Source of the DNA: Methanopyrus kandleri AV19
GTDB lineage: Archaea > JAADCQ01 > Methanopyri > Methanopyrales > Methanopyraceae
NCBI RefSeq assembly: GCF_000007185.1
Contig: NC_003551.1
Coordinates: 270,001-302,000, forward strand
Length of the DNA stretch: 32,000 nt
Direction of reading: 5' to 3'
Position numbers and translations under genes: made by a program
Part shown: positions 641 through 31,078 of the stretch, one piece after another
Layout: each line of letters opens with the position of its first letter
Numbering within the stretch: position 1 is the stretch's first letter
The notes under the pieces: model-generated
What the model was told of the DNA's origin: nothing
What the model saw: the letters and a program-made list of their open reading frames with translations, nothing else
Database searches by the model: none

Positions 641-1053
641 AAAGAGGATACATTGTAAAGAAGTTGCCACCTCCGGGGCGCGTCTGGGTGGCCGGTAACC
701 GCGCTGGGTCACTCCGATGTAACGTCCTGATCGGAGCGGAACGGTACAACCGTCAGGTGATAATACACGTTAACGTGGTTAACTACAGTTGGGTACCTAT
801 ACCCACAATAAACATCAAAGGAAAGCTCCGGAAGAGGGCGATAGTGCTCTCAACACCGAAATCGAGCACGTTACCGGCTATCAATGTCCACCGTATTCCG
901 GAGGGTTTCCTTGTCAGGATCTCGTATTCGCACGGTGTGAGAGTTGTGAAGATAACGATCTCCGGGGCCAGATGGGTTGGTGATAAACTGGTGTTCCACG
1001 GATCTCTGAGGGACCTCATCGCGAACATACGAGTCACCGGCGACTTAGTCTGA
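79..1053 (+). CDS. hypothetical membrane protein (hydrophobic N-terminal about 110 aa, beta-rich C-terminal part)
   Basis: Longest ORF here. It has several hydrophobic helices (VINVLIIIKV, ILALAVVSGSIVGG, ALGALFGYCALTIHWWLAIII). The in-frame stop upstream is at 25-27. No family recognised, and base composition is atypical. Confidence 0.5.
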   Translation: MILFPTTNSLPYVLPFTVINVLIIIKVRKLLPSVLRVMWITCIVTILALAVVSGSIVGGRLLVVVPLLTAMSLVLPAANRNLLALGALFGYCALTIHWWLAIIIHGNEGISTLPVWVLKEHWNIFYKSLCNKDVIATLPEGLLPFTCTWKPREVAYVVRTFPEPYTSILLTAKEGSEILLYAPPVRAERGYIVKKLPPPGRVWVAGNRAGSLRCNVLIGAERYNRQVIIHVNVVNYSWVPIPTINIKGKLRKRAIVLSTPKSSTLPAINVHRIPEGFLVRISYSHGVRVVKITISGARWVGDKLVFHGSLRDLIANIRVTGDLV

Positions 1054-2614: not shown

Positions 2615-2692
<78 letters not shown>

Positions 2693-15196: not shown

Positions 15197-15634
15197 TCAC
15201 CCCCGGACCACGATCGTGTTTCCGCCCCTCCTCTTCGCCTCCCGGAGCGCCTCGAGGGCACGACGGACCGCCGGCGACTCGGCCTCCCGGAACGAGCGGC
15301 GGTCGCTGGGCGCCGGACCCACGCCCACACCGAGGCTGATCGTGACCTCGCCTTTGAACTCTCTTTCGAAACGTCTACGTATCCGTTCACATTCTTCGAG
15401 TATTTCGTCTAAGAACGCGTCACCGCCTGGGATCTCGACGACGAACTCCTCGGTACCGCGCTCCCGGTCCGGTCCCTTGACGGCCACGGCGCCCGGAAAC
15501 TTCGTCAGAAACCGCTCAACCAGCTCCGTGAGAAGGCCTGTGGCGGGGTTAGGAGAGTACTCCGGCCAACCCCTCTCCTCGACCACCTCCCCGAACCGGT
15601 CCAGGTCGCCCGCCACGGCCACGCTCCTCAGCAC
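15197..15634 (-). CDS. minimal GGDEF-like nucleotidyl-cyclase (palm) domain protein, GTEEF variant
   Basis: The 146-aa core aligns by eye to the GGDEF domain: GDLDRFG (DxDxF), RGTEEFVVEIP (compare RYGGEEFVVIMP of PleD), VTISLGVG, ALREAKRRGGNTIVV. The ORF-track N-terminal extension to 16084 overlaps serA and is Arg/Gly junk. GTG 15634 lies 1 nt after the serA stop codon (15628-15630). Confidence 0.7.
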   Translation of the reverse strand: MLRSVAVAGDLDRFGEVVEERGWPEYSPNPATGLLTELVERFLTKFPGAVAVKGPDRERGTEEFVVEIPGGDAFLDEILEECERIRRRFEREFKGEVTISLGVGVGPAPSDRRSFREAESPAVRRALEALREAKRRGGNTIVVRG

Positions 15635-17196
15635 CTGACCAGCTCCACCCGGCGGACCGGTTCGACCTCGTCGATGGCCCGCAGGCACTCCTCGGGCGGC
15701 TCCTCGTCCATCCGTATGACCATGATCGCCTCGCCGCCGCGCTCCCGGCGTCCTACCTCCATCGCGGCCACGTTCACGCGGTGCTCGCCCAGGATTATCC
15801 CGACCTCCCCGATGACCCCCGGCCTGTCCACGTGCCACACGAAGAGCGTCGGACCGCTGAGCTTGAACCGTACCTCGTACCCGTTCACCGACGTCAGGTA
15901 CACCCGATCCTCGACCAGCTCGCCCCTGAGCGAGATCTCGTCCTCGTCCGAGCGGACGACCACCTCCACCTCTCCTCCCTCGAGCTCGTCCGAGACCGTG
16001 AACTCGAACTCGATCCCCCTCCGCTCGGCGACGTCTACAGCGTTGACCATGGTGACGGGCTCCGTCAACACTCGGTCCAGACACCCTTTCAGGACGGCCC
16101 GCTTCAGCGCCTCCTTTTCACGGTCCTCGAGCTCACCACCCACCTTAACCTGTACCCACCTCAGGCGCTCCTCGAGTACCTGGGCGGCGGCGTCGGCCAG
16201 CCTTTCACCGACCTCCATCAGCTCCCTCACGTCGTCCGGCACACCGGCCAACGGCAGGTTGACCACGTTCTCCGGGATCTCGCCCTTCAACACCCTCTCG
16301 ATCTCGCGGGCTACGATCAGACCCGCGGCCCGCTGCGCCTCGCCGGTCGAACCGCCGATGTGCGGCGTGAGGACCACGTTATCCAGCTCGTACAGCGGGT
16401 GGTCCTCACCGGGTGGCTCCTCGGCGAACACGTCGAGGGCGGCGCCCGCGATCCAGCCCTCCTTCAGCGCCTTGATCAGCGCCTCCTCGTCCACGATCTT
16501 ACCGCGCGCGCAGTTGACCAGGAACGCCGAGCTCTTCATCCGCTTCAGCTCCTCCTCGCCGATCATCCCCTCCGTCTCCTCGGTCAGGGGCACGTGGATC
16601 GAGACGACGTCAGCGCGCTCCAGCAGCTCCTCGAGCTCGTCGACGAGCTCCACCCCGAGCTCCTCCGCCACCTTCTCCGGTATGTACGGGTCGTACGCTG
16701 TCACCTCCATCTCGAACGCCTTCGCACGCTTGGCCACCTGCTGACCTATCCTACCCAGTCCTATGAGACCCAACGTCTTTCCGGCCAGCTCGACGCCCAT
16801 GAACCGCTTCCTGTCCCACTCCCCGCGGCGCACCGACCTGTCCGCCTGCGGTATCTTTCGGGCCAACGCCAGGATGAGACCCATCGTGTGCTCGGCTACC
16901 GAGATCGAGCTCGACTCGGGCGCGTTGACGACGATGATACCGCGTTCCGTCGCGGCCTTCACGTCGATGTTGTCGACGCCCACACCCGCCCGGGCGATGA
17001 CCTTGAGATTCTTAGCCTCCTCGATCAGCTCCCTCGTCACCCGCGTCCCGCTCCTCACCACCCAGGCGTCCGCGTCCCGCACGTGCTCACGGATCTCCTC
17101 CTCGTCGGCGTCCTCCAGCACGACGACCTCTCCGAGCTCCTCGAGCTTCCTCAGCGCGTCCTCGTGGATAGGGTCCGTAACCAGAATCTTGGCCAC
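15628..17196 (-). CDS. serA: D-3-phosphoglycerate dehydrogenase with C-terminal ACT domain
   Basis: KILVTDPI..., [12 protein letters not shown] motif, and the full-length long-form layout. GTG 17196 chosen because of the GGGGGTG SD. The ORF track extends to 17313. Confidence 0.92.
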
Positions 17197-17229
17197 GGAG
17201 ACACCCCCGGCCGGGCACGGATAGCCCCG

Positions 17230-17237
17230 AAAATATG
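17230..17237 (-). promoter_or_regulatory. candidate TATA box for serA
   Basis: CATATTTT on the minus strand, about 38 nt upstream of GTG 17196. Confidence 0.35.
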
Positions 17238-17325
17238 TTGACTGGGTCTCCTCCGGGGCCGGCCCCGTCGCCCCGATGGTGCCAACGGGTCCGCCAAGGT
17301 CGACGTGAAGCACCTGACGAGGCGC

Positions 17326-18045
17326 TCACTGTACGTGTCTCAGCTTCCAGCGTTCTAATTCGAGTTTCACGTCGGGGATCTCGTGTTTCCCGTCGAGGGA
17401 TTTCCTACGGTGACGGATCACCTTCCTCAAGTGAGCGGAGTAATGCGCGGGCCAGCCTCCGAGGGTTCTGATCGCGAAGGATTCGAGTCGATCGGGGAGT
17501 TCCTCTAACACGTCCCGGATCCTGGGTGATTCGGAGGGTCGGGCGTCGAACGTCAGCGCGAGCCCTCGTGCGAGTACTCGCCTTGCCCTCTTGTATGGGA
17601 GGTCCGAAACCCCGGTCAGGAGGGTCTTGAGTACCGAGCGGAGGTTGCGCATCAAGTGCCGGGCGAGCTCGAGGACCTCGTTCCGGTCCAGGGAGACGAG
17701 CCATTCGACGAACCGAACACTCTCGTTCTCGGGTTTGCCCAGATAAAGGGTCCTACCGTGCTTGAACTTCGAGTCCCTCCGCCACCTCGCGACGTAGTAC
17801 GGACCGCAGGTACTCCCGCTCACCGTCCGGTAGGTCACCTCGAGGCTCGGCTTCCTCTTCCTCCGATGGACTTCCCTCAGGACTCGGAGTGCCCGAATCC
17901 TCTCGACCGGGTCGGAGGGTATCGGGACGTGCGACTCGATCAACCCCGGTACGCGATCCAGGGTAGTGGCCCCAGATTGTATGGAGGCAGGGGAAAGGCA
18001 GCCTTCCAGGATAAAAGTCTTGCCGTTCGGAAGTCGTGACGTCAA
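17326..18045 (-). CDS. hypothetical basic protein with GPYYVARWR...YLGK motif
   Basis: ORF with coding bias and a TTG start. The motif is reminiscent of the GPYWY...YxGK element found in archaeal mobile-element-associated proteins (from memory, unverified). Confidence 0.55.
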   Translation of the reverse strand: MTSRLPNGKTFILEGCLSPASIQSGATTLDRVPGLIESHVPIPSDPVERIRALRVLREVHRRKRKPSLEVTYRTVSGSTCGPYYVARWRRDSKFKHGRTLYLGKPENESVRFVEWLVSLDRNEVLELARHLMRNLRSVLKTLLTGVSDLPYKRARRVLARGLALTFDARPSESPRIRDVLEELPDRLESFAIRTLGGWPAHYSAHLRKVIRHRRKSLDGKHEIPDVKLELERWKLRHVQ

Positions 18046-18088
18046 TCAGCTCCCTGCTACCATACAAGGTGGCGGGAGGTCGGGGGTG

Positions 18089-19126
18089 CTAGGCGTCGTT
18101 TCGACGGCCCGCCAGCGGCACAGGTAGTAGTGGCAGTACCCAGAACGGGATCTTCGACGTCCCGCTCTCCCCATTCCTCTCCGGGAACAGGAACTCGACG
18201 TTCGGGTGCTCGCCCATCACTTTCTGGAGCTCCTTCTCGCTAGCACCCTGGCTGTACATCCCGATCACCTTCTCGACGAACCGTACCAGCGGATCGTCGT
18301 GTGATAGTTGGAAGCCTACCCAGAGGGGTTCCGCGCCGGAACGCGTGCGCAGTAAGTCCCCGGAGAACCCCTCGATCCCCTCACCTGGCGGCGTACCCCA
18401 CCTCGCCCTTAGCTCGCGCAGCTTCGAGACCAGCTCCGAGTCCGTACTCTCCCGACGGTCGACGAGGATCCTACCCTTCCTGAGGTCGAACGTCGCGTCG
18501 ATGACGAGCGCCAGGTCCTCGACCCCCTCCGGGAACCCCAGGATCCTCATGACCACCCGATCCGAGTACACCTCGTACTCGACGTCCACCGGATCGAACG
18601 ATCCCAAACCCTCCTCGTCGACCACCCGACCCCCGGCGCTCAAAGTGAGAACGTACTCGCACCGCGCCGGAGCCCCTAGCGCGGGGACGTTGGTGACGTA
18701 CCCGAAGCTACACACGTGGTCCCCGACCACGACGTCCAAGCCCAAGTTCGCCGAGGAACCCTCCGTCAACGGGCACTGGTTCACGCTCGCGATCACCGCC
18801 GGACCCTCCAAACGCTCCTCCACAGCGACGGGCCTCCCGCACGTCAGCGGGAGTACCACCCGAACGCGTCCCGGTTCGACCGACTCCTGCACCCTCGAGA
18901 ACGCGAACAGGTTCTCCTTGGGTAGGTAGATCACGTACCCCGCCGACTCCGAGTACTGCACGACGTCCACGATCACGTGTGGGTCGTCTTTCCACTTGGG
19001 TAGGACCCGTTTCTGGAAGTACTCGTGTAGGAATTCCAGGTCCTTCGAGAGGCTACCCTGGATTAACGGTTCTCCTGAGGCCGGGGTTAGTGCTAGAACT
19101 AGTCCTAGGACGAGGTAGGGGAGCAA
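18089..19126 (-). CDS. exported orphan protein with signal peptide and C-terminal hydrophobic anchor
   Basis: N-terminal MLPYLVLGLVLALTPASG. C-terminal IPFWVLPLLPVPLAGRRNDA. Confidence 0.7.
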   Translation of the reverse strand: MLPYLVLGLVLALTPASGEPLIQGSLSKDLEFLHEYFQKRVLPKWKDDPHVIVDVVQYSESAGYVIYLPKENLFAFSRVQESVEPGRVRVVLPLTCGRPVAVEERLEGPAVIASVNQCPLTEGSSANLGLDVVVGDHVCSFGYVTNVPALGAPARCEYVLTLSAGGRVVDEEGLGSFDPVDVEYEVYSDRVVMRILGFPEGVEDLALVIDATFDLRKGRILVDRRESTDSELVSKLRELRARWGTPPGEGIEGFSGDLLRTRSGAEPLWVGFQLSHDDPLVRFVEKVIGMYSQGASEKELQKVMGEHPNVEFLFPERNGESGTSKIPFWVLPLLPVPLAGRRNDA

Positions 19127-19141
19127 TGCCTCCGACCCCCC

Positions 19142-19297
19142 TCAGGTTGGTAGTGGGATTAGACCGGCCAGTTGTACCGCGAGCGTGACGACCTGGGCTA
19201 ATATGCTCAGGAAGGTCCCCAGGGTCCCGAGGAGGGTCGGCTGTAGTACCGAGAGACCCGCGAGCGCGAGCCCCACGACCGCCCCGAGGATACGCAT
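19142..19297 (-). CDS. 51-aa two-helix membrane protein (absent from the ORF track)
   Basis: ATG preceded by AAGGAG 9 nt upstream. MRILGAVVGLALAGLSVLQPTLLGTLGTFLSILAQVVTLAVQLAGLIPLPT. Hand-alignable to the C-terminus of ORF 25669..26193. Confidence 0.55.
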   Translation of the reverse strand: MRILGAVVGLALAGLSVLQPTLLGTLGTFLSILAQVVTLAVQLAGLIPLPT

Positions 19298-19371
19298 ACG
19301 ATTGGTCTCCTTGGACCGAGATTGTACCTGGGGAGGACAATGATATTGGAGGGAGACGAGTGTTCACGATT

Positions 19372-20214
19372 CTAATACTCCCTCCTGATCCCTAGGAGTG
19401 ACAGTACCGCCGCGAGCGCCGGTAACAGCGGGTTCACGGGCATCTTCTCGTTCGCCCACGCTCGCGTCAAATCTTCGATCTTCGTCGCGTGATCGTCCAC
19501 GAGGTGACCGAACGTCCCATGGGTAAGCTCTTCATCTACGGTTTTCTTCTTCCCGTACGGGCAAGTTTGCATATAATCATGTTCAGCATTTTTCAGGGGC
19601 GTGTGTTTCACGTGCGCCTGGAAGGTGATGTGGTAATCGCCCTTCTTATCGTGAACGATTACATCACCGTCTATCGAGTAGAGGAAATCGACTACCCACT
19701 GGTTCGATAGTTGTTCCGCGTGCTCCACCTTAGCACTGGGCCGGAAGGTTATCCCCACGGTTTTCCCGTCGATCGTCCGCACGACCCTGAGCGGTTCCTC
19801 CGGCCCCCACGTGCCGTTGGCGCTCCTCAGCTCGATAGTTCGGCCGTTGAACTCGATGATGACACCCTGCCCGGGGATTACGCGTATGAAGACCCTCTCG
19901 TCCAACAACAGCTGGTTCTTGTAGCGTACGGTCATCTTCACGATGAACCTGTCCACGGTACGGCTGAGGTGGTTCTCACTGACCTTCGTCTCTCCGAGGG
20001 CATCACACCTACCGTCCCAACAACAACTCGCGATCACGTACCCCTGATCGTCGTACACCTCGACGCCTACGAGCAGGTCCTTGCACGCCTCGTAATCGCC
20101 GTCGACGTTCACTTTAGACGTCACGTCGGTCACGTGGTCCGCGGCCGCTCCCGTCGGGACCACACTCACCAGCGCGATCAACGGGCCCAGCACAAGGGGA
20201 AACCCGCACCTCAT
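19372..20214 (-). CDS. exported Cys-rich orphan protein with C-terminal anchor
   Basis: The signal peptide MRCGFPLVLGPLIALVSVVPTGAAA starts at ATG 20214, behind GGGGGAGGGAAG. C-terminal NPLLPALAAVLSLLGIRREY. The ORF track extends to 20289. Confidence 0.7.
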   Translation of the reverse strand: MRCGFPLVLGPLIALVSVVPTGAAADHVTDVTSKVNVDGDYEACKDLLVGVEVYDDQGYVIASCCWDGRCDALGETKVSENHLSRTVDRFIVKMTVRYKNQLLLDERVFIRVIPGQGVIIEFNGRTIELRSANGTWGPEEPLRVVRTIDGKTVGITFRPSAKVEHAEQLSNQWVVDFLYSIDGDVIVHDKKGDYHITFQAHVKHTPLKNAEHDYMQTCPYGKKKTVDEELTHGTFGHLVDDHATKIEDLTRAWANEKMPVNPLLPALAAVLSLLGIRREY

Positions 20215-20660
20215 CTTCCCTCCCCCGTCAAGCGGGCCCATCGGCCGCACGCGCGGGCTGTCGTACCGGTCTTTTCGATAAGACATCATGGGTTATATCA
20301 CGTTTTAGATCGTTCCCAACCCGGGTTCCACACTTACGGCTTCCCGTCGGGCACCTGAGCGGGCGTCGCCGTCCCGATCGGATGATCCCCGAGTCCCGCT
20401 ACCGAAGCTCTCGCCGCCCCGTCGGACCGCGTCATTGTGATCACCTTCCTACCGGGCGAGGGACGCGTCCTCGTCCCCAGTACCGTAAACCGGGATCCCC
20501 GACTCCTGCGCCGTCTGACCGGGTTCGAGTGCGAAGCCCGCCCGTCCGGGTGAGCGTGCTAGGGATGTCCCTCGGGGCGCGACCACTGTACGTGCGTTAC
20601 GACCGTGTGAGAGGATTCCTCACCGTCGCCCCGACGTCGGGATGGCGAATTTGAGAAACC

Positions 20661-20702
20661 GTAATAGTATATAGGAAACGAATACGTCTGACATTTTAAT
20701 TC
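20661..20702. promoter_or_regulatory. AT-rich patch with TATA-like elements in the divergent spacer
   Basis: GTAATAGTATATAGG and CATTTTAATTC form the only AT-rich island in the 1.1 kb spacer. Direction is unknown. Confidence 0.3.
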
Positions 20703-20809
20703 GCGGCACGTTCGCGAAGGTCACACTCGGGACGCGGGGACGGCACTCGACCGGTTCCTCATCTCGGGGGCGACTCATCGGGCCGAAACCCTCCCCGAAG
20801 GAGCAACGC

Positions 20810-21202
20810 GTGGAATCCGTTTACACGTTCACGCTCTCCCTGTTCGGATGCCTCGACGTGACCTCGGTGGTGGGTCCCAGGCTCATGAAGGACTACGGGA
20901 AGAACCTGGCGGGGGAGTCTTTCCTCAACCGCTGTTGGAATCCGGGGTGTTCTTCAACTGCTCGAAGAGGAGTGCAAGTGGGTGGATCCGGACGAAGGGC
21001 TCGTGGAGTTGTATCGTCAGACCCACCCCAAGGGCGATCCCGCGGACGCCGAGCACGCAGCCGTCTGCCTACGAACCAAAACGGTATTGATCACCCTAGA
21101 CATTTCTCGGAGGTGGCGAGGGAGCTGAGGGGAGAAAGTTTAGCACTGAAACGGCGGACGCCGTTCGACTTCGAGTTCGATGTGCTCGAATGTAGAGGTT
21201 AA
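20810..21202 (+). pseudogene. possible decayed small gene whose coding signal jumps between frames
   Basis: AAGGAG sits 7 nt before GTG 20810. Coding-like segments are ESVYTFTLSLFGCLDV...ESFLNRCWNPG (frame A), VLQLLEEECKWVDPDEGLVELYRQTHPKGDPADAEHAAVCL (frame C), and IDHPRHFSEVARELRGESLALKRRTPFDFEFDVLE (frame A). Confidence 0.3.
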
Positions 21203-21416
21203 GGTTTAGGAGTAACGCTAGGCATGCTCTGAGGTTCGAGCTCTACCCATCAGAGCACCTCCGGGCAACCACGCAGGTACCATCTCAACACCGAATTCCA
21301 TTTCCGGTGCAGACCTTATGATGTGTTAATGCGTTTACGAATGCAGGAACCCTCCTACCGACTGGTGAGAACCCATCCCCATTCTCGACGTGACATCTTC
21401 CGAGGGGTCCGAAGCC

Positions 21417-22477
21417 ATGGTCCCGGCACCGCTCGCCCTCGTCCTCTCCACCCTCCTGACGGTTCAACCCGCGAACTCCCTACAATGGAAGGATTGCCCC
21501 TGGATCCAACTTGGACGCCTCTCCTGTGCTACGCAAGGACTAGCTGTGGATTACCCGTACGACCTGGCCGGAGACCACCTGCTGTTGGTCTCACCCCTTT
21601 GGCCGGAGGGTGATCACTACCGCGTGATCTTGGCGGCGTACGGGGTCGAGGAACTCCCGCTGCCCCTCGGGACGAGGGTTCACCGAGTGTTCGTGCCCTC
21701 CGAAGTCCGGCGGGTGCCCTGGAAGCTGTGGGAACAGATACCCGAGAGTCCGAGGCCGGCGACCTTCGGACCGTGGTCCGAGGTCCGGTATTCCCTGAGG
21801 GAATGGGGGTGTCCCCAGGGGTACGTGTTCGATCCGGACGAGTGGGATTGGAGCGAACTCCAATCCTCGCTCGAGCTGGCCGTCCTGCTCGAGCCCGAGC
21901 GGACCGTGGACGGTGTCTTCGCCGTCGAGGCGAGCCTGCCCGTGAGGGAGGACCGGATCGGGAAAGAGCGTTGGATCAGGCTCGCCCTGACCCCGGGCCG
22001 TTGGCTGGTACTGCTCGGTTGGACCGAGGATTTCGACGTGCGCACGCCGTGCAGGACGCTCTTCCGGGGGGCGCGCCCTACGACGAGGCCGAGTACGGGC
22101 TGGACGGCGTGAAACTCCGCTTCTGGGTCGCCGAGTACCTGTTGGACCTGGGAGGGCGGGCGAGGATACCACCGAGCGAGTACTACTCGAGCGTGGCGGG
22201 GTTGTTCGACTTCTTGAATGAGTTACCCGGTGGGTGGGAGTTCCGGCCCGGGTTACAGCACGAGCACCGGTTGTACTACGGGTACGGGGTACTGCTCGAG
22301 GTGCGGGCGGACCGATCGTTGATCGTCGAGTTCAAGGCGCCCGAAGCGGGAAAACGCTTCAGATCGGCCGATACCGTGGACCAGTGGTTCCTTTCAAGCC
22401 GATACATCGCCCGCCACAGCCACCTCCTGGAACCCCTGCGCAAAATCCTCAGAGGTTCGAGACCTGACGGAACGTAG
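21417..22477 (+). pseudogene. exported orphan protein, paralog of 24271..25311, interrupted by a frameshift in a G6 run
   Basis: Signal peptide MVPAPLALVLSTLLTVQPANS. ORFs 21390..22112 and 21728..22477 join at 22066-22071. One extra G would give TLFRGGAPYDEAEYGLDG, colinear with TVFRGRVPYNEVKYDLDG in the paralog. Confidence 0.65.
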
Positions 22478-22595
22478 GTTTCCTCCCGCTATTTCCCGCC
22501 GTCCCAACCCCGTCGCGCGGCGCGTCGACGACCGGTCATGTCCGCCTTCGCTTCAAAGTGTTAACAGTCCGTCCACGCCTCGAGATTTCCAAGAA

Positions 22596-22605
22596 CTTTA
22601 TTTTT
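22596..22605 (+). promoter_or_regulatory. candidate TATA box (CTTTATTTTT) for the transglutaminase-like gene
   Basis: About 36 nt upstream of ATG 22637. Confidence 0.4.
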
Positions 22606-22636
22606 CCACCAGAAAAGTGGGTTGGGTAGCATCGGG

Positions 22637-24210
22637 ATGAAGGTGAAAAGGGTGAGGATCGTCCCGGCCCTCACCCTCGGTGTTCTGGTCTTCGTGCCGA
22701 CCGGTGTCGATGCTCAATGCGGAGCCGAAGTGGTTTCAGTGGGTCGAGGGTTGTGATTGGGCTAAGTACCTCGCAACGCGGGATACACCGATCGTGGACT
22801 GGACAGGTGAGTTGATCGGCGAGAACTGGCGCGCGAACTGGGTCAGGGCCGCCAAGTACATACTATATTGCGCACCGTACAAAGGCGATTCCGTGGAGAA
22901 GGTAAGGCAAGCCTGGTACGGGAGCATCACGCTCGAAGGCCACGTACCCGACAAAGGCGCGCCCGCCAAGTTCGGAGAGGTAGACTGGAGCGACAAGAGA
23001 CCGGACATGCGTTACATTGGTCTCGCGTTTGACTACTTCGACCCTGTGTTCGACTTCCTCCACGTGCCGGAGGATCTGAGGAGAACCATGAGAAGGCTAG
23101 CCGAGCTGATGGTAGGGCTCGGAAAAGTTTCGGAGCGAGAGTACGCCGAGTCGATACTCAAAGATGAGTATATGCCTCCCAGGAGCGGGGAGCCCTCCAG
23201 GAGCAGGGAGTACGAGATACGTAACGGGCAGTACTGGTTACCTGGGGAGTGGTGTTGGATAACCCTGAACGGCACCTCGCTTTATGGTAAGGTAGCGAAA
23301 TCCCCGGCCCAACCGTTTCCGAACGCCGGTGAGGCTGAGAGGAAACTCATGAACAACAACCCGATGTTCCAGGCAGCCGTCCGACTAGCGTACTGGGTGG
23401 CCACGCACATACCGTTCATCGGGTGGTTCAACTGGTTCCCCCTCGCCGGGTACTGTGGCCACCTCAGCCCGATGTACTACGAGGGGCCGGCGGCGCCACT
23501 ACTCTTCCCGGATGAGGGTTGGGTGTGCACGGACCACGCAGTGCTCACGGTAGCCCTTTACCGGGCCGCGGGGATCCCGGGGTACGTCGGCGGTGAACTC
23601 GAACCGTTTGGAGATCACTCATGGACGGCCGTACGACGAAGGTAGCGGTTGGCACGAGATCTTCATCGACCCAACCGGGCCCATGATGCACAAACCTTGG
23701 AAGATCCGGGACAGCGTGGTACTAGTACCGAAACACAAACCGATGAACGACGATGAGTACGCTTGTGCGTCATCCCAGCGCCCGTACGACATGCTCAGTG
23801 AGGCCGTCCGCGACGCGATCTCACGGTTCGTTAGTCCGGAGACTATGGAAAGGTTGAAAATCGCTTGGGACGGGCTTAAGGGATTGAGTATAGGGTTGAT
23901 GATGGAGAGGTTCATCTACACGAACTTCCTCACGGCGCAGGGTGTATCTAAGCTCATTGACAAGCTGTTCTTCGGCGGGAATCTTGAGTTCGAGATCGGG
24001 AACTGGTTTGACAGAGTCCGCAGGTTCCCAGGATGGGACGCGAGTGAAGACGGCGTAGAACGACGGTGGCGTGCTTTCAAGAGCGAGTGGGCGAGGTGGA
24101 GAGTCAAGGAGAGGGAGCCCAAGAAGAGCCCGACGATCTGGGTGATCATCCTAGCGGGCTCACTCGCCCCGCTGGCTTGGTTCCGGGGCGCACGGGGGGT
24201 GATCCGGTGA
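22637..24210 (+). pseudogene. secreted transglutaminase-fold Cys-His-Asp protein with C-terminal anchor; two frame interruptions
   Basis: The signal peptide MKVKRVRIVPALTLGVLVFVPTGVDA is in frame 2 and the body from 22680 is in frame 0. Core motifs are GWVCTDHAVLTVALYRAAGIP (Cys 23526-28) and GDHSWTA (His 23616-18). After a +1 shift at about 23628-23632 comes YDEGSGWHEIFIDPTG (Asp 23668-70). C-terminal SPTIWVIILAGSLAPLAWFRGARGVIR. Confidence 0.7.
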
Positions 24211-24270
24211 TCCTCCTCGTCCTCACCGCTCTCCTAACCCTCCCATACGACGTGACGGCCCCTTTTACCC

Positions 24271-25311
24271 GTGGAAGCACCGTGGGTGATGGATCCAGAG
24301 CTTTACCAAAGCCATACCGTACAGTTCGAAGGTAGTGGTATCCCGCCCGCGAGACCGTCGGACCCCAACGCGTTCCAGGCCGATCGTTTCCTACTCGTGG
24401 CACCGCTCTGGAACGAGGAAGGGCGTCACCGCGTGATCATCGGTGCGTACCGTACCGAGACGGTACCTCTACCCGAGGACGCTAAGGTGTGCCGAGTACT
24501 GGTGCCGGATCGCGTGGAGGTCGTAGAAACGGATAACCCGTTCTCGGACGAGCGAGGGGATCCCGCCTGGGGAATTCTCAGTGCTCCAAGACACTTCAAG
24601 AAGCCCGTTCCGACGGGACCCTGGCACGAGGTGAAGTACACTTTGGAGGAGCATGATGGCATTCTGCTCATCAGGCCCGAGCGGACCGCGGACGACATCT
24701 TCGCCGCCGAGGCGGACTTACCCACGCGCGACGGGTGGGTCAGGATCGCCCTAACACCGGGGAACTGGTTGGTGTTACTGGGATGGTCCAAGGAGTTCAA
24801 CCTACTGACGGTCGACGGCAAGACCGTTTTCCGGGGACGAGTGCCCTACAACGAGGTCAAGTACGATCTGGATGGTGTAAGCATGGTCTTTTGGTACTGC
24901 GGATACGCAATCGACTTGAAGGGTTACAAATGGTTCAAAGACGTTTTCAACTCTGGGACATCTCGGGAATGCTGGCTTATGTTACATTACATAGATAATT
25001 TGGTGTCATCAAAAAGTAATAAAGCCAGCACGGACATTCTTAACTTTCATCCTTTGTTGCAATATAAGATAGGAATTCTATATGGACCAGGGATAATTTT
25101 GAGAATTAATACTAGAAATCCGATAATTATCGAGTTTAAAGCGCCGAAACCTAGGGATTACATTAAGTATGGATATAAAGAATTTTACTCAGATAAGTAT
25201 TGGAGTAATTCCCTAAGTCCATTAGAAGTTATTGTAAGTCAGATATTGTACGGTGTAATATGTCCAGTAATAACTCCGCCGATCCTATTAATACACAGAA
25301 GGCGTCGCTAG
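24271..25311 (+). CDS. orphan surface protein (paralog of 21417..22477) with C-terminal anchor; 3' third encoded in low-GC DNA
   Basis: About half the residues are identical to the paralog in hand-aligned blocks (FLLVAPLW, RVIIGAY, VPLP, IALTPGNWLVLLGW, IIEFKAP). C-terminal CPVITPPILLIHRRRR. A likely signal peptide is out of frame upstream (GTG 24207). Confidence 0.7.
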   Translation: MEAPWVMDPELYQSHTVQFEGSGIPPARPSDPNAFQADRFLLVAPLWNEEGRHRVIIGAYRTETVPLPEDAKVCRVLVPDRVEVVETDNPFSDERGDPAWGILSAPRHFKKPVPTGPWHEVKYTLEEHDGILLIRPERTADDIFAAEADLPTRDGWVRIALTPGNWLVLLGWSKEFNLLTVDGKTVFRGRVPYNEVKYDLDGVSMVFWYCGYAIDLKGYKWFKDVFNSGTSRECWLMLHYIDNLVSSKSNKASTDILNFHPLLQYKIGILYGPGIILRINTRNPIIIEFKAPKPRDYIKYGYKEFYSDKYWSNSLSPLEVIVSQILYGVICPVITPPILLIHRRRR

Positions 25312-25630
25312 AGACGGGGGTGCGAAGTGATGTTACGACTAGCGTTAACTACGGATATAGTAGCCCTTACGGTAGTTTTAGGTACCCACGCTTCCCCCGT
25401 TGATGACTGCATTAAGCTACATAACAATACACTCTCTAGGGTCGATGAAATTCATAATAAGCTGAATAATTTGTTAAATAAACTGGAAGAGTGTGAGAAA
25501 AAGAACGTTGACCTATCGAGTGAAAAGCATGATATACGTTTGTCCTTGAAGTACCTTGAGGAAGCTAAAGAAGTACTCTCTAGGGATAGAAGTAACTTAG
25601 AATAGTCGAAATCTAAGTATAATTCTATTA
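24960..25630. other. low-GC tract (about 28-35% GC by hand count) spanning the 3' end of one gene, the spacer, and the 5' end of the next
   Basis: Lines 24961, 25021, 25081 and 25561 count 20, 21, 17 and 20 G+C per 60 nt. Flanking lines are 50-65% or higher. Confidence 0.8.
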
Positions 25631-26193
25631 AGGATGGTGATCGAAAGGAGCGTCTTCTGGCGGAGATCATGGACGGTAGCAGCGGTCTCAGCATGTGTTT
25701 TCACCTCGTCCATGAGATCGGTAGGAAGTTGGATGATGTGGAGGATATCGTTGACGACGCGATCAGGTTGTGTGATGAGTTCTTGCAGGATAAGTTGGAC
25801 GTTGACGAGTTTAAGAAGAGATTGGATGATATGCTGACGCGCGGTGGGGGTATCGTGGGGAACTCGGGGGACGTGAAGGACGCGGCCTACTCGATCGAGC
25901 AGGCGGTCGAGGCCACCGTCGCTCGGGTGAGCGATCTACTGGAGAAGTGGTCCAGGGAGGACGAGTCGAAGGCTCGGTACGAGCGGTTGAAGGATAAGCT
26001 CGAGGGGCTACGCGGGTGGGTGTTCGGCGGTCTGGCACTCTCGCTGCTCGCAGGCGTCCTAGTACAACTGGCACCGCAGGAGGCCAAGACGACACTGTTG
26101 CAGGCGTTGAGCGCGATCACCCAGGTACTCGCGGTAGTACTACAGCTGGTCCAGGTGCTCCACGGGCTGCTACCGGTACCGATCTCGGCCTGA
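25330..26193 (+). pseudogene. signal/anchor + long coiled-coil + C-terminal membrane hairpin protein, interrupted by one in-frame TAG
   Basis: ORFs 25327..25605 and 25669..26193 are in the same frame and are separated only by TAG 25603-25605. GGGGGTG SD lies 7 nt before ATG 25330. Confidence 0.6.
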
Positions 26194-26407
26194 AACCGCC
26201 CACGCTCCCCTCACTTTCCCGTTAACCGCCGTGAGGGCTCGGACGTCCCCTATGGGATGCCCGATCCACACCGACCGAGCGTCACGCGGACACCCGACGG
26301 AGGTCACGTCGGAAGCGGAATCTCCGTACGAGATCCGGCCGAGCGGTTGCGTCTTCCGCATACGAGCACTGATAAGCCTTCCCATCGCCCCCGTCCCGAC
26401 AACCCGA

Positions 26408-26416
26408 TTTATAATA
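26408..26416 (+). promoter_or_regulatory. TATA box TTTATAATA for the polyferredoxin gene
   Basis: Strong archaeal TATA consensus about 50 nt upstream of ATG 26467. A GGGGGA SD-like run lies in between. Confidence 0.5.
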
Positions 26417-26466
26417 GCCGGCGTCGGAACAACGAGACGAACGCGATTTACTTGGGGGAAACACAC

Positions 26467-27540
26467 ATGGCGGAGGTCAGGCTCGAGCCCGTGAAGGAGG
26501 TGTCCCCGCCGCTGCTGCGCGTGGTCAGGAAGGGCGTCGAGGAGAGGGAACTCGTGATTAACACGTCCAAATGCGCCGCCTGCGGGATCTGCGAGGCGGC
26601 CTGCCCCGTGGGCGCCATCTCCGTGGCACCGCCGTCCGCCGTCGTGCGCAAGGGAGAGGACCCGATCGACGTCGACGAGAGCAAGTGCGTCCTCTGCGGA
26701 ATCTGCGCCTTCGTGTGCCCGTACGACGTCATCCAGCTGCTCGTCAACGGGAAGCCCATGACCGAGGCCGGGCTGCCCAATCTTCCGAAGTCGGTGGAGG
26801 TGGACGAGGAGGAGTGCGTGTACTGCTCCCTGTGCGCCGACACCTGCCCGCAGGAGGCCATCACGGTCGAGCGCGAGGTCCCGACGCCCGGTGATCTCGT
26901 GATGGGAGAGATCGAGATCGACGAGGAGAAGTGTATCTACTGTAAGGCCTGCGAGGAGGCGTGCCCGGCCGACGCCATCACGGTCGAGCGACCGAAGCCC
27001 AGCGCCGCGGATCCCGAGCCCGAGTTCACCATCGAGGTCGACGAGGACAAGTGCGTGTACTGCGGTGTGTGCATGAGGACGTGCCCGGTGGACGCGATCA
27101 AGGTCGGCTGTATGGTCTGCTACGGTACCACCCGCGGCGAGATCCCGGCGAAGGGCGAGGTCGACGGGTCCGTCGACGTCGACCCGAGCTCCTGCGTGTA
27201 CTGCGGGTGGTGCGGCTTCGTCTGCCCGGTAGACGCCATCGAGGTGATCAAGCCGTACGAGGGCACCCTTGAGGTCGACGACGAGGAGTGCGTCGGCTGC
27301 GGACTGTGCGTCGAGGTGTGCCCGTGCGGCGCGCTGGAGTTCGAGAAGGGCGGCAAGGCCGGCAAGACCAAGATCGTGGCGCACCCGGAGACCTGCGCCT
27401 ACTGCGGAGCGTGCGCCCGGGCGTGTCCGGTGAACGCCATCACCGTCGTCCGTGAGGGCGTCACGGCGATGCCGGAGCTGCCCACCAAGGCCTGGAAGAA
27501 GGCCCTGGACCGCGTCCTAGGTCCCGTGGAGAAGGAGTAG
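26467..27540 (+). CDS. polyferredoxin with eight [4Fe-4S] CX2CX2CX3CP motifs (FwdF/MvhB-like)
   Basis: Eight motifs counted, e.g. CAACGICEAACP, CVLCGICAFVCP, CVYCSLCADTCP, CIYCKACEEACP, CVYCGVCMRTCP, CVYCGWCGFVCP, CVGCGLCVEVCP, CAYCGACARACP. ATG 26467 chosen over the longer track ORF. Confidence 0.92.
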   Translation: MAEVRLEPVKEVSPPLLRVVRKGVEERELVINTSKCAACGICEAACPVGAISVAPPSAVVRKGEDPIDVDESKCVLCGICAFVCPYDVIQLLVNGKPMTEAGLPNLPKSVEVDEEECVYCSLCADTCPQEAITVEREVPTPGDLVMGEIEIDEEKCIYCKACEEACPADAITVERPKPSAADPEPEFTIEVDEDKCVYCGVCMRTCPVDAIKVGCMVCYGTTRGEIPAKGEVDGSVDVDPSSCVYCGWCGFVCPVDAIEVIKPYEGTLEVDDEECVGCGLCVEVCPCGALEFEKGGKAGKTKIVAHPETCAYCGACARACPVNAITVVREGVTAMPELPTKAWKKALDRVLGPVEKE

Positions 27541-27653: not shown

Positions 27654-28406
27654 CTACTTCCCGGGCTCGACCCCGACGCGTTCCCTCACGGTCGACTCCA
27701 CCAGCTCGCTTTCACGCACGACACTGTAGAGGGCCCGCCATCCACCGCCCTCGTTCCACCACGTCTCGAACTCGCCCCCGAGCTTCTCCGACAGCCACGC
27801 GCAGAGACAGAGTCCGAGCAGCCGGGCTCCACGTCCGTCGTACGCCCGCTGAAGCGCCTCGGACAACTGTTCCGCGCGATCGTCGTAACGGTCGACCAGG
27901 TACTCACCTACGTCGTCCAGTACGGCCAGGGAGACCAGCGTCCGGACGGCGGGATGGTGGGTCAGATCGAGGACGGACGACGACAGCTCCTCGGTGTTCG
28001 CACCCCACACCACCAGCGTCAGCTCGGGCGTCAGGACCGGGAAGCCGATCGTGCACCGACCCCTCGTCAGACTCCGTAGCGTCCTGAGAGCGGGCGACGA
28101 CGGTTCCGCGTCCCCGAGCACTTGATCCAGCGCGTCCTCCGGACATTCCACACCCTTGACCCTTCTCACGGACACCCGGGCTACTGACGCCAAACGCGCC
28201 ACGGCTCGACCGATCGGCCACACCTCGTCGGGCCTCCTGATCCTGACCCGTCCCTTGGAGCGACGCTCCCTGATTATGTCCCAGGCACGGACTACCGCGC
28301 CGTCCACGACCTCGTCGGGGACGCCGAAGACGCGTTTGACGTACTTACCATCGAACGACGCCTCGGTCAAATCCGGACCCCCGATCCGTACCTCCGTCTG
28401 TTCCAA
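27654..28406 (-). CDS. hypothetical protein, overlaps the 3' end of the ParA-like gene by 40 nt
   Basis: Coding bias present, 250 aa, no family recognised. Confidence 0.55.
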   Translation of the reverse strand: MEQTEVRIGGPDLTEASFDGKYVKRVFGVPDEVVDGAVVRAWDIIRERRSKGRVRIRRPDEVWPIGRAVARLASVARVSVRRVKGVECPEDALDQVLGDAEPSSPALRTLRSLTRGRCTIGFPVLTPELTLVVWGANTEELSSSVLDLTHHPAVRTLVSLAVLDDVGEYLVDRYDDRAEQLSEALQRAYDGRGARLLGLCLCAWLSEKLGGEFETWWNEGGGWRALYSVVRESELVESTVRERVGVEPGK

Positions 28407-29494
28407 TCCGCCCGGATGTGCCGGGCCACCTCGCGGAAGTACCCCGAGTGCCTCTTGTCGGGACGCGCCCGGACCGGGATCCCGAGGGCCGATGCGAACC
28501 GGATGACGGGGCGCTCGGGGATCTTGACGACCTCGTCCTTGTTGAGGGGGATCTTGTTGAGGATCCTGTTTAGAACTCCGTCGAAGAACTTGGCCTCCCG
28601 GGTCAGGCCGTCCGGTGGGACCCTGTTCACCACCGCGAGCCTCGTCACGTAAAGCTTGCAGAATAAGGACAGTTGCCTCACGTTCTCGGGGTCCACGACG
28701 GGGATCACCAAATCGACCTGCGTGAGGATACCCGCGAAAGTGTCGGAAGCCGCGTTCATCGGGGGAGTGTCGACGACGCCCAACGGTGGCGAGCTCAAGT
28801 ACTCGCGGAGCTTCGAGTCCAGGGACCCACGGTCCTCTAGGTACTGAAACAGCAGCTCGTTCGCCGCCGCCAGCAAACGCCTGAGCGGTTTAACCCGTCT
28901 AATCCGGATGTTTTTAGGCACCGCCAGGAGTGCCGGGGCGAAGGACGCGTCGCTGTCGACCAGCCCGTAGCTACCGAACGACCCGTTAACGCCATCGACC
29001 GGGACGGGCTCGTCCGGATCGTACTCGACCACCTGAACGTCCAGCTCCGGTATGGGACTGTGCAGCGATCGGAGCCGGAACGGCCCGTCCTCGAACATCT
29101 TCTTGAGCGTCCTACCGCCTTCGTCGCTCCGGCCCTGGGGATCCAAGTCGAAGAACACCACGGGCCGGCGGGGCACCCCGTCGAAACCCTGGTAGTAACG
29201 TGCGAACTCGAGGCCGACGTTGAACGCAACCGTGGACTTGCCGGTACCTCCCTTGTAGGCCGTGAACCCCACTAGGAACGGCGCCGCGGGCTCCCGGGAG
29301 GGCAACCCGCATCCCCCGCGAGCTCGAGGCATAGGGCCGGTAACCGGTGTTAGAAGCACTTGACCGCTACCGTTCTCATCCGGCGTTAACGGTAAGTCGA
29401 CGGATAGGACCGGGCACTCCCGCCCCGGCGGTGTGACTTTCGGCGGAATGTCGGTGTAACTTGAGGTTACGCTTTGGTTGCGTTTGAGTTTCAA
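28367..29494 (-). CDS. ParA/MinD-family P-loop ATPase (start uncertain; ATG 29332 is an alternative)
   Basis: Deviant Walker A KGGTGKST, DLDPQG, and Walker B-like VVDTPP. Confidence 0.85.
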   Translation of the reverse strand: MKLKRNQSVTSSYTDIPPKVTPPGRECPVLSVDLPLTPDENGSGQVLLTPVTGPMPRARGGCGLPSREPAAPFLVGFTAYKGGTGKSTVAFNVGLEFARYYQGFDGVPRRPVVFFDLDPQGRSDEGGRTLKKMFEDGPFRLRSLHSPIPELDVQVVEYDPDEPVPVDGVNGSFGSYGLVDSDASFAPALLAVPKNIRIRRVKPLRRLLAAANELLFQYLEDRGSLDSKLREYLSSPPLGVVDTPPMNAASDTFAGILTQVDLVIPVVDPENVRQLSLFCKLYVTRLAVVNRVPPDGLTREAKFFDGVLNRILNKIPLNKDEVVKIPERPVIRFASALGIPVRARPDKRHSGYFREVARHIRADWNRRRYGSGVRI

Positions 29495-29529
29495 ATCGTA
29501 TTGTTATGGGTTACGTAACAATTTCAAAG

Positions 29530-29603
29530 TGGGCCCGCCGGGATTTGAACCCGGGACCACCGGCTCGTCAGGCCGGCGTTCTGCCGGGCTGAACTGCGGG
29601 CCC
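29530..29603 (-). tRNA. tRNA-Val (anticodon GAC), no encoded CCA, C at position 8
   Basis: Hand-folded: GGGCCCG/CGGGCCC acceptor, GTTC/GAAC D stem, CCGGC-CTGACGA-GCCGG anticodon arm, CCGGG-TTCAAAT-CCCGG T arm. Confidence 0.88.
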
Positions 29604-29622: not shown

Positions 29623-31078
29623 TCACTTCTCCCGGTATTTGAGTCTTATGCCCCGGACGGAGCCTCCGAGCGCCTTCAGCGCCCTCTCCGTCCTCTCGGC
29701 CTTGGCCCGGGAGTAGGCGAACCCCACGTCGCTCAGGAACCGCATCACGTCCTCCCGACCGCAGATGAAGAGGCGTTCCGTCACCCTCACCTTACCGTCC
29801 TCCGTCGTGTAACACCGCTCCCGGTTCAGGCCCCATCTACAGCCCGCGACCTCCTCCAACATCTCACCGATCTCGGTCATGAAGAGGTGCAGGGAACCCA
29901 GGTACACGGCCGACTTCGCCTGGGTCAGGCCGATCGCGTACCGACCGTCGGACCCCGTCAGCCATCCGTCCGCCCCGAAGAGACCGGCGAGGAACTCGGC
30001 CTTGACGCCGGGAGGCGCGCGCAGGATCCACCCGGGTACCCCGTAGACGCGCTCGACCTTCGGGCTTCGGGGCATCCCGAGGAGCTCCAGGTAGCGGGCG
30101 AAGGCGCGCGAGTGCACGTGGAGCTCGACCATGTCCTTCGTGTCCCACCGTCTGAGACCCGTCCCGACGCCGAGCGTGGCGAGGTCGTCGGCGAGGTCAC
30201 GGAGACCCTCGGGTTCGCCGGCGAAAGTCAGCCGCAGTTGTCCGTCGATCTCGTGGAGGCTACCGTCGCCGAGGGCGTACCCGAGCACGCGGGCGAGGAG
30301 CGGGATCTTGTGGTCGTCGAGCGCGATCGGGAGGAGACCGCGGCGTCGGAGGTAGGTCCCCTGTCGGTCCGGGAGCCCGGGATCCCGGAGGACGGGTTCA
30401 GGCGGGTCGGAGACCGGTTCGGCCCGGAGTCGCTCGATCCGATGGTCCAGTCGGGTCCCGAGACGGTGGGCCTCGCGCCGCTTGCGGGTGTGGTACGGGA
30501 ACCCGACGTCGGTGAGGAACCCGTGGACGTGGGTGTCCCCGTCGATATGGAGATGGGTGCGGAGGTACTCGCGTCCGGAGGGGCCGGTGGCGACGGCGTG
30601 GACCCCGAGGGTCACCAGGAGGTCCAGGACGTCCCGCATGAAGGCCGCGAGCCCGTCCCGGTGGCGGGCGGGTGAGGTCATCGTCAGGGTGACGCGCGGC
30701 GTGGTCGGGGGAGCTGTCGGCGATGGAGGCCCGGGCGTCGAAGAGACCGGAGAGGTAGGCGGCCTTGAGGTGGGTCGGGACGCGGTGAACGGCGTCGGGA
30801 ACCCTCGGTCCGGTCTCGCGTCGGGGGCCGAGGGGGAGGCCGAGCCGGAGGAGCTCGTCGGCGACAGTCTTGGAGTCGATCTTGAGGGCTCGGGGTTCCG
30901 TCTGGTGGGCGATGTCCAGGGCGCGGAGGTCCCGTCGTAGTCCCTCGAGGGCTCCGGGGTCCACGGCGATGCGCACGCGGCGGACGGTGGTGTTCCGGTC
31001 CCGACGGCGGTACTCGGTGATGGAGCCGCGGGCGGAGACGTAACCCAACACGCGAAACAGTTCGGGGTTGTGTTCCAT
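29623..31078 (-). pseudogene. free-standing LAGLIDADG-family protein with four LAGLIDADG-type motifs, one frameshift
   Basis: Motifs are LFRVLGYVSARGSI, YLSGLFDARASI, LARVLGYALGDGSL and FLAGLFGADGWL. ORFs 30398..31078 and 29623..30681 join at the GCCGCGCG repeat (plus strand 30691-30700). Confidence 0.72.

Follow-up and report, generated by a model that had tools for sequence, protein, structure and literature searches.

Between serA (15628..17313, minus strand) and a polyferredoxin gene (26257..27540, plus strand) of Methanopyrus kandleri AV19 lies a locus made up of two divergent gene strings (Table 1), which we analysed within a stretch of 32,000 nucleotides (nt) of the chromosome (NC_003551.1, positions 270,001 to 302,000; henceforth the window, in whose own numbering all coordinates without a locus prefix are given). 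Locus open reading frames (ORFs) are exactly identical at the protein level to M. kandleri AV19 AAM01520.1, MK0304, MK0305 and AAM01523.1. A preliminary description made from the DNA letters alone had placed two strings of orphan exported proteins on either side of a spacer, and both its coordinates and the divergent arrangement were borne out by the ORF map. Here we describe the products of this locus, the damage found in its plus-strand arm, and the company that its gene families keep in relatives of AV19.

Products and composition of the locus

By a hydropathy scan, A, B, C, D, G2 and G4 each have a hydrophobic segment near the N-terminus, followed by a plausible site for signal peptidase. 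Hydrophobic segments also lie at the C-termini of B, C, D (two helices) and G4, and a weak one at that of G2; E51 consists of two hydrophobic helices. The earlier proposal that most products are exported or anchored thus holds by hydropathy for these six proteins, but not for G1, which is basic (47 Lys plus Arg versus 27 Asp plus Glu) and contains no hydrophobic segment. With regard to family membership, searches of Pfam, NCBIfam, PHROGs, PADLOC and the sequences in the Protein Data Bank (PDB) returned PF01841 for B and DUF1678 for G1 and otherwise no family, apart from coiled-coil noise for D. It had been claimed that nothing beyond the transglutaminase fold would be recognizable, and the remaining products are indeed orphans, whereas G1 is a DUF1678 protein (PF07913, E 1.9e-102).

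As had been anticipated, the composition and integrity of the locus are unlike those of the flanking core genes. The GC content at third codon positions (GC3) is 0.72-0.82 in locus genes versus 0.89-0.93 in serA and the polyferredoxin gene, a low-GC patch is present, and the genes of the plus-strand arm are broken. The gaps of the minus-strand string (G4/E51/G2/G1) measure 74, 15 and 43 nt. Within the spacer there were no Rfam matches even at E<=1, no tRNA by ARAGORN and no similarity to related loci, and across the locus as a whole no non-coding RNA reached the Rfam gathering scores and ARAGORN found no tRNA, the nearest tRNAs (2615..2692 and 29529..29603) both lying outside the block. A tandem-repeat search of the locus gave just one 21-mer, in two copies, within G1.

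Table 1. Genes and other features of the locus between serA and the polyferredoxin gene (coordinates in the window).
Feature	Coordinates	Strand	Remarks
G1	17326..18045	-	intact; DUF1678 protein
G2	18089..19126	-	intact; 345 amino acids (aa); predicted signal peptide and C-terminal hydrophobic tail
E51	19142..19297	-	intact; 51-aa two-helix membrane peptide; gene call present in the third-party assembly (TPA)
G4	19372..20214	-	intact; 280 aa; predicted signal peptide and C-terminal membrane anchor
Spacer	20215..21416		1.2 kb between the divergent strings; no gene, RNA or conserved element detected
A	21417..22477	+	A/C-family pseudogene; predicted signal peptide, no C-terminal anchor
B	22637..24210	+	transglutaminase-like pseudogene; predicted signal peptide and C-terminal anchor
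C (MK0305)	24207..25311	+	A/C family; open body ORF 24271..25311, signal peptide 24207..24260; C-terminal anchor
D	25330..26193	+	predicted secreted coiled-coil protein; two C-terminal membrane helices; in-frame TAG
Low-GC patch	24860..25640		GC 0.32-0.46; spans the 3' half of C, the C-D junction and the 5' third of D

The A/C family

A and C had been put forward as paralogs, and their comparison upholds this pairing (32% identity over 343 aa, E 7e-50). A word-index search placed the A/C family in 11 clusters, and an exhaustive profile search of 1.84 billion representatives brought its size to 22 proteins; in AV19 itself no paralog beyond A and C turned up in protein searches, AV19 being absent from the output of the genome-collection scan. 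Modelling of C with AlphaFold from nine members of the family reached a predicted local distance difference test score (pLDDT) of 81 and a predicted template-modelling score (pTM) of 0.82, and gave a largely beta structure that has one helical insert and ends in a helix. Foldseek searches with this model against the PDB and predicted viral structures returned no match, all template-modelling (TM) scores being <=0.20 (best in BFVD 0.17). Going by this model, the A/C family is a confidently predicted protein for which no structural relative can be detected. Two further candidates for kinship were rejected: a profile match of the A/C family to a 3015-aa PKD-repeat protein comprises 16 weak repeats of one ~55-residue stretch and is at most a hint of an immunoglobulin (Ig)-like sandwich, and hhalign probabilities below 3% leave the A/C, G2 and G4 families unrelated.

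Both window copies are frameshifted. The frameshift site of A reads TTCCGGGGGGCGCGCCC (G run 22066..22071), and inserting one G brings back a 353-aa reading frame, whose product can be aligned with C and the homologues through FRG(G/R)APYDE. Because the homologues read GGGCGCGCGCCC at that point, we attribute the lesion to slippage in a G/CG run, and an allele with one G fewer (G5, see below) equals the loss of one CG unit. In C, an extra C in the run 24259..24262 parts the signal peptide from the open 346-codon body; in its homologues P0003 and P0005 the signal peptide is contiguous with ALLPVEAPW. The TGA stop of B overlaps the GTG start of C by 4 nt (GTGA, 24207..24210), and since B and the A/C gene of the related locus L021 overlap by 4 nt likewise, this suggests translational coupling of the pair in an intact ancestor.

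Gene B, a transglutaminase-like enzyme in decay

B passes the family threshold of PF01841 (25.5 bits versus a cutoff of 23, E 1.7e-5, in the ORF 22680..23645), and its homologues P0012-P0015 carry a precomputed assignment to the same family. The existing AV19 annotation agrees, with an MK0303-type 'predicted cysteine protease of the transglutaminase-like superfamily' (AAM01520.1) followed by MK0304. A triad of C297, H327 and D345, within the motifs GWxCxDHA, HxWTA and FIDP, is invariant in the alignment of the B family, which amounts to 4 clusters in 5.8 billion, and the catalytic motifs align weakly with a solved protein-glutamine gamma-glutamyltransferase. The N-terminal part is formed by ~250 unrecognised residues.

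Two lesions mark the window copy, neither of them in a repeat: one base too many at ~22715, just past the signal peptide, and at ~23631 a small deletion that goes with a frameshift and falls between the catalytic His and Asp. An intact 456-aa homologue (P0013) aligns over both. The triad is therefore not contained in one continuous polypeptide, the ~23631 frameshift splitting His from Asp. On the evidence of its alignment the B family qualifies as transglutaminase-like, and the AV19 copy reads as a pseudogene.

Gene D, E51 and the low-GC patch

The in-frame stop of D (TAG, 25603..25605) stands where an intact 288-aa orthologue (P0033, 64% identical) has Trp, that is, a TGG>TAG change. The D family comprises 2 clusters. 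Coiled-coil matches of D to Rad50, SMC, an endolysin PHROG and JetA were rejected as compositional chance, the last of these (E 8e-4) being the only match to anti-phage defence systems in PADLOC.

A second internal pairing, that of E51 with the C-terminus of D, had also been proposed and is plausible but weak. The Smith-Waterman score between the two is 60, versus 32+-6 for composition-preserving shuffles (0 of 2000 reach 60), yet against the D orthologue it is only marginal (45, reached by 58 of 2000 shuffles). E51 is thus a possible paralog of the D C-terminal hairpin.

Regions homologous to the low-GC patch dip just to GC 0.54-0.57, and the synonymous substitution rate (dS) is saturated inside the patch only. 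We interpret the patch as a probable recombination tract from a low-GC donor.

The minus-strand arm and shared tails

Each minus-strand gene is either alignable with its homologues over the full length or simply an open frame. G1 matches profile positions 1-196 of the 196 in PF07913 and is thereby a full-length member of DUF1678, a Methanopyrus-specific family without known function. It is probably cytoplasmic and nucleic-acid binding, and might be a regulator or a passenger. Homologues of G1 lie near a G2 homologue in L005 and adjoin a Prim-Pol gene in L003; such repeated proximity of DUF1678 to the module, and to a Prim-Pol gene, is newly observed here.

G2, for which Pfam, NCBIfam, PHROGs, PADLOC and PDB gave no match, is 66-68% identical to its homologue in the metagenomic locus L005 and ends in a short Pro/Leu-rich hydrophobic stretch followed by RR. 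For G4, a start at 20214 agrees better with its homologue than one at 20289. G4 homologues are 69-72% identical in L002/L016 with more copies in L018 and L022 (53-72% over all four loci), and in each case a gene for a 464-aa multi-pass membrane protein follows. A weak likeness of VRTIDGKTVGITFRPSAKVE in G4 (residues ~140-170) to the N-terminal hairpin of ubiquitin spans 27 residues and attains a low E only with polyubiquitin, via repetition; we dismissed it as chance.

Tails of one kind were seen in otherwise unrelated families (A/C, G2, G4, B, D and E51), namely a short Pro/Leu-rich hydrophobic stretch, often with an LPxP end, and then an Arg cluster (e.g. LLPVPLAGRR, LPPLPLARRRR and ILLIHRRRR). 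Such tails may simply be ordinary anchors, or they might constitute a sorting signal not recognised so far. They bring to mind archaeosortase substrates of the PGF-CTERM type, since most locus products end in a hydrophobic stretch of this composition plus an Arg cluster, but differ in that the Pro motif comes after the hydrophobic stretch and not before it. No NCBIfam sorting-domain model matched seven of the eight products at E<=1 and D gave coiled-coil chance matches only; the archaeosortase itself was not searched for.

Authenticity of the lesions and selection on the gene families

The preliminary description had listed A, B and D as ORFs, but none of the three is open, each being interrupted by frameshifts or a stop, and in C the signal peptide is out of frame with the body. 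Decay, which had also been suggested, is thus evident in the plus arm, where four of the four genes carry lesions, and not in the minus arm, which is intact. The same strain is represented by three further assemblies (L001, L008 and L009), two made from separate sequencing runs and one by a third party; they are 99.99% identical to the window and have all of the lesions. The sole indel relative to the window is a G5 instead of a G6 at 22066..22071, in ERR9765747, ERR9765777 and TPA DUJS01000004, and A is out of frame with either run length. Either the reference contains a homopolymer error or culture stocks of the strain differ here. We also note that 8.1-kb and 1.4-kb Logan contigs differ from the window by this G-run indel only. 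Because the other assemblies of the strain carry the lesions, and because intact homologues align across each of them, the plus-arm lesions are real and not errors of an old reference.

Estimates of the ratio of nonsynonymous to synonymous substitution rates (dN/dS) for orthologue pairs were 0.31 for G2, 0.24 for G4, 0.08-0.15 for D, 0.19-0.30 for C, 0.46 for the C-terminal part of B and 0.37 for G1, as compared with 0.15-0.24 for adjacent core genes. Since the orthologues show purifying selection, these are real, functional gene families whose plus-arm copies in AV19 died recently. The same evidence bears on whether the locus might consist of chance ORFs in GC-rich DNA, a possibility that the preliminary description had itself raised, or of sequencing errors in an old reference. 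Long spurious ORFs are common in the GC-rich window and one homopolymer differs between it and newer assemblies, but the orthologues are 64-72% identical with dN/dS well below 1, the A/C AlphaFold model is confident, and the remaining lesions recur in the three other assemblies; for these reasons we regard chance ORFs and sequencing error as excluded for practical purposes.

It might further be asked if the plus-arm interruptions are regulatory, such that slipped-strand phase variation, programmed frameshifting or stop read-through would make this a surface contingency locus. The G run of the A lesion differs between assemblies (G6 versus G5), the C lesion sits in a C4 run, and the frames past the lesions stay open for 170-350 codons, all of which would fit. 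Nevertheless, neither G-run length seen puts A in frame (G7 or G4 would be required), and phase variation at this run is ruled out. The lesions in B lie outside repeats and one of them deletes residues between the catalytic His and Asp; homologues are damaged at other positions, with deletions among their lesions; the stop in D results from a simple TGG>TAG change in a conserved Trp codon; and, G-run length aside, the three other strain assemblies carry identical plus-arm alleles. To our knowledge M. kandleri also lacks the pyrrolysine machinery, which counts against read-through. Regulation of this sort is hence very improbable in our estimation.

Gene context in relatives

In the metagenome-assembled genome (MAG) JAMOPO01, serA, rsmB and the polyferredoxin gene are 85%, 81% and 79% identical to those of AV19 and are syntenic. 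The interval between serA and the polyferredoxin gene (L004/L006) there holds a single A/C gene in the opposite orientation, and the other families are grouped elsewhere in the genome of JAMOPO01 and relatives, between genes for homoserine dehydrogenase and aIF5B. Carriers are Methanopyrus-like wherever the flanks can be judged. A comparison of synteny among relatives had been proposed as a check on the locus, and shows the block to be variable, not intact and syntenic in all of them.

The arrangements found at other sites differ from one another. L005 presents, in order, an A/C gene, a gene for a 545-aa exported protein, a G2 homologue (66%) and a DUF1678 gene, whereas L010/L011 present D, B (frameshifted at residue ~73), two A/C genes and a homologue of the 545-aa protein, so that L010 carries D and B and L005 neither. 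A/C stands with G4 and then the gene for the 464-aa multi-pass protein in L002/L016/L018/L022, and L003 and L007 both contain a degraded B (with differing lesions), a C-like and an A-like gene. In L003 this cassette is downstream of genes for a 1270-aa Prim-Pol protein and a DUF1678 protein, with Prim-Pol between DUF1678 and the cassette. Throughout these rearrangements B stays directly upstream of, and co-directional with, an A/C gene in five of five distinct contexts (the window, L007, L003, L011 and L021). Remnants of the Prim-Pol gene (by tblastn with that of L003), the 545-aa gene and the 464-aa gene were not found in the window.

Turnover is seen at the level of strains as well. L002 and L021 have aIF5B genes that are 99.9% identical, yet differ by a 3.9-kb segment bounded by A/C paralogs and made up of the 3' end of an A/C gene, the 464-aa gene, G4 and an A/C 5' end. 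In place of the two A/C genes of L002 there is a single hybrid in L021, and we take this hybrid as the signature of recombination between A/C paralogs. In addition, L021:1500-4200 is a ~2.7-kb low-GC island (0.30-0.47 in a genome of 0.66-0.70) containing an intact B (425 aa, L021:3137-4414) and A/C (387 aa); within this B the GC content falls from 5' to 3', making the gene mosaic too, and the island mirrors the AV19 patch at the C-D junction. To summarize, families of the locus co-cluster at differing chromosomal sites, and content, position and integrity vary even between near-identical strains, with gene content shifting via recombination of A/C paralogs and import of low-GC DNA.

Two features of these loci deserve a mention in their own right. 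The window lacks the 545-aa protein (L005:11502-13139; homologues in L011 and L015), which carries a signal peptide, is hydrophobic in its C-terminal half, has no Pfam match and by eye shows EExxxR-like and HxxxN-like motifs reminiscent of CPBP/CAAX intramembrane proteases. CRISPR-like arrays are located directly after the A-like gene in L003 (10820-11646) and also at L007:4117-4927, L020:3558-4101 and L022:11934-12145, with a 36-nt repeat (CTTGCATTAACCCGCAGTTAATACGGGTAATGAAAC) and unusually long, contig-specific spacers of 46-71 nt; none of the spacers beside related cassettes matches the window or the compared loci.

An integrated element as a possible source of the locus

The possibility that the locus is an eroded integrated plasmid or provirus, with A/C, B, D, G2 and G4 as envelope, adsorption or lysis proteins, a PeiW-like B, a DNA-binding DUF1678 protein and its replication and integration genes lost, requires a more serious hearing, and we judge it the less probable account while granting it some weight. 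The 1270-aa Prim-Pol of L003 between the DUF1678 gene and the cassette of B remnant, C-like and A-like genes is what such an element might leave behind, as are low-GC patches inside a high-GC genome (in the window as in L021), a gene set at differing chromosomal sites across genomes, many pseudogenes among the module genes, and GC3 below that of flanking core genes. It also fits that lysins of methanogen phages, PeiW and PeiP, use a transglutaminase fold in cutting pseudomurein isopeptide bonds (PMC4592898).

Searches for the element itself speak differently. Within the window the earlier suggestion of an integrated element found no footing, with no integrase, replication gene, attachment-site-like repeat, adjacent tRNA or match to virus and plasmid collections detected. 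Pfam, NCBIfam and PHROGs gave no integrase or recombinase, replication, capsid or packaging gene in the window, and the best border direct repeat is just 17 nt at 88%, which is chance level, and joins the polyferredoxin border to a site inside G4 and not to the serA border. No tRNA stands at the borders of the block or in six related loci. The A/C family, the only one so tested, was not found in IMG/VR, by tblastn against phages and plasmids, or in BFVD; L003 has no terminal overlap indicating a circle; and a relative has a lone A/C gene between the core genes serA and polyferredoxin.

B itself resembles PeiW and PeiP in its Cys-His-Asp core, in its above-cutoff PF01841 score, and in belonging to a pseudomurein-walled host whose wall it is predicted to face. 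On the other hand, it lacks their N-terminal pseudomurein-binding repeats (Pfam at E<=1 gives Transglut_core alone) as well as any relative in PHROGs or among PDB sequences, it carries a predicted signal peptide and C-terminal membrane anchor, and its AV19 copy is a pseudogene.

Other features of the window and of related loci

The first ~600 bases of the window have GC 0.33-0.47 and form, within 1..1053, a second AT-rich orphan patch; the ORF 79..1053 (plus strand, 324 aa) encodes several hydrophobic helices and has neither a Pfam match nor a homologue in the compared loci. Beyond the polyferredoxin gene, 27654..29494 and 29623..30681 are fast-evolving and without Pfam match (48% and 38% identity with the MAG), the 375-aa product of one of the pair having a GGTGKS P-loop. 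Just past tRNA-Val 29529..29603 lies a gene for a LAGLIDADG_3-domain protein (66% identical in the MAG), divided by this tRNA from the fast-evolving pair. L004:5062-8253 (equivalent to L006) contains three formate-dehydrogenase genes (fdhA as two ORFs, and fdhB) between the polyferredoxin gene and the homologues of 27654..29494, and AV19 has none there.

Interpretation and comparison with known systems

Taken together, we read the locus as a variable, recombining envelope-protein module of Methanopyrus and a few relatives that faces the pseudomurein wall and is partly pseudogenised in AV19, an interpretation to which we would give about an even chance of being correct. The preliminary description had spoken of an undescribed cell-envelope system, and the lineage-restricted, undescribed families of predicted exported or anchored proteins are in keeping with this, although the word 'system' is unproven and depends on the B-then-A/C pair and on co-clustering.

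Several points weigh against this interpretation. Signal peptides and anchors were called by a simple hydropathy scan alone. Every genome compared is a MAG or a set of metagenome contigs, and all derive from two or three samples, so that few independent lineages stand behind the constant pairing of B with A/C and the recurrence of the module. An origin from a mobile element would account no less well for the low-GC patches and for the Prim-Pol gene next to one cassette. AlphaFold gave an unusable model for B (pLDDT 33). B is broken in four of the six copies examined (window, L007, L003 and L011; P0013 and L021 have intact ones), and such frequent damage could mean that B is dispensable or harmful rather than central. 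Lastly, half of the locus is dead in AV19 itself, and the decay of this copy weakens it as a lead on pseudomurein surface biology.

With these reservations the envelope module might work as follows. Its proteins would leave the cytoplasm but stay attached to the membrane opposite the pseudomurein wall, with A/C proteins presenting a predicted beta-rich ectodomain of unrecognised fold between a signal peptide and a C-terminal anchor. B would be a membrane-anchored extracytoplasmic Cys-His-Asp enzyme acting on amide or isopeptide bonds, and the constancy of the B-then-A/C pair suggests that the A/C protein is its substrate or its partner at the wall. Extracellular transglutaminase-type enzymes have been postulated for the cross-linking and recycling of pseudomurein (PMC10117817), and the phage lysins PeiW and PeiP cleave isopeptide bonds of pseudomurein with this fold (PMC4592898). 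It may process or cross-link its co-transcribed A/C partner, or alternatively trim or cross-link pseudomurein peptides and so attach or release A/C-like proteins. Further parts would be the putative coiled-coil protein D, anchored by two helices, G2 and G4, which are anchored as well but unrelated, and the basic DUF1678 protein. Viruses, neighbours or attachment may put the surface under diversifying pressure, of which the turnover of the module would be the outcome, and in AV19 just the minus-arm products could still serve the envelope.

A bolder version, which we consider improbable, would make the B-A/C pair a wall-attachment and release system of pseudomurein, a counterpart of sortase or LapG, in which B forms or cuts isopeptide bonds between stem peptides and an A/C protein whose fold has no solved or viral counterpart, and in which cassettes are swapped on low-GC mobile DNA to vary the surface.

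LapG is a bacterial transglutaminase-like cysteine proteinase that controls the surface adhesin LapA. A predicted extracytoplasmic enzyme of transglutaminase fold encoded beside an anchored surface protein would make LapG/LapA the best analogy for the B-A/C pair. It would be an analogy of working and not of membership, for B and A/C have no sequence relation to LapG, LapD or LapA, and neither a cyclic di-GMP partner nor an RTX adhesin.

As a gene cluster, the locus is comparable to the archaeal 'dark matter islands' and the hypervariable Ig-domain module of Thermococcales (PMC4158269, PMC8416519), these being likewise narrowly distributed, fast-turnover clusters of secreted or membrane proteins that differ between close strains. 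No families are held in common, however, and the architecture is another one, A/C having no Ig-domain Pfam match and a weak PKD profile echo only. Neither of these two papers mentions Methanopyrus genes, we found no mention of MK0300-MK0306 in the literature, and a comparison of the Methanopyrus strains SNP6 and KOL6, including its supplements, does not list the region. The kind of locus is therefore familiar, a variable island of lineage-specific secreted proteins; its families, the pairing of an enzyme with its partner and the dynamics of its cassettes are undescribed.

For the biology of Methanopyrus, the locus shows at strain resolution how the surface repertoire of a hyperthermophile turns over, with cassettes lost and gained via paralogs, DNA of low GC imported and genes rapidly pseudogenised. 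With respect to the attachment and release of proteins at a pseudomurein wall, and to the enzymes that make or trim its isopeptide bonds, the B-A/C pair offers a concrete and testable candidate.

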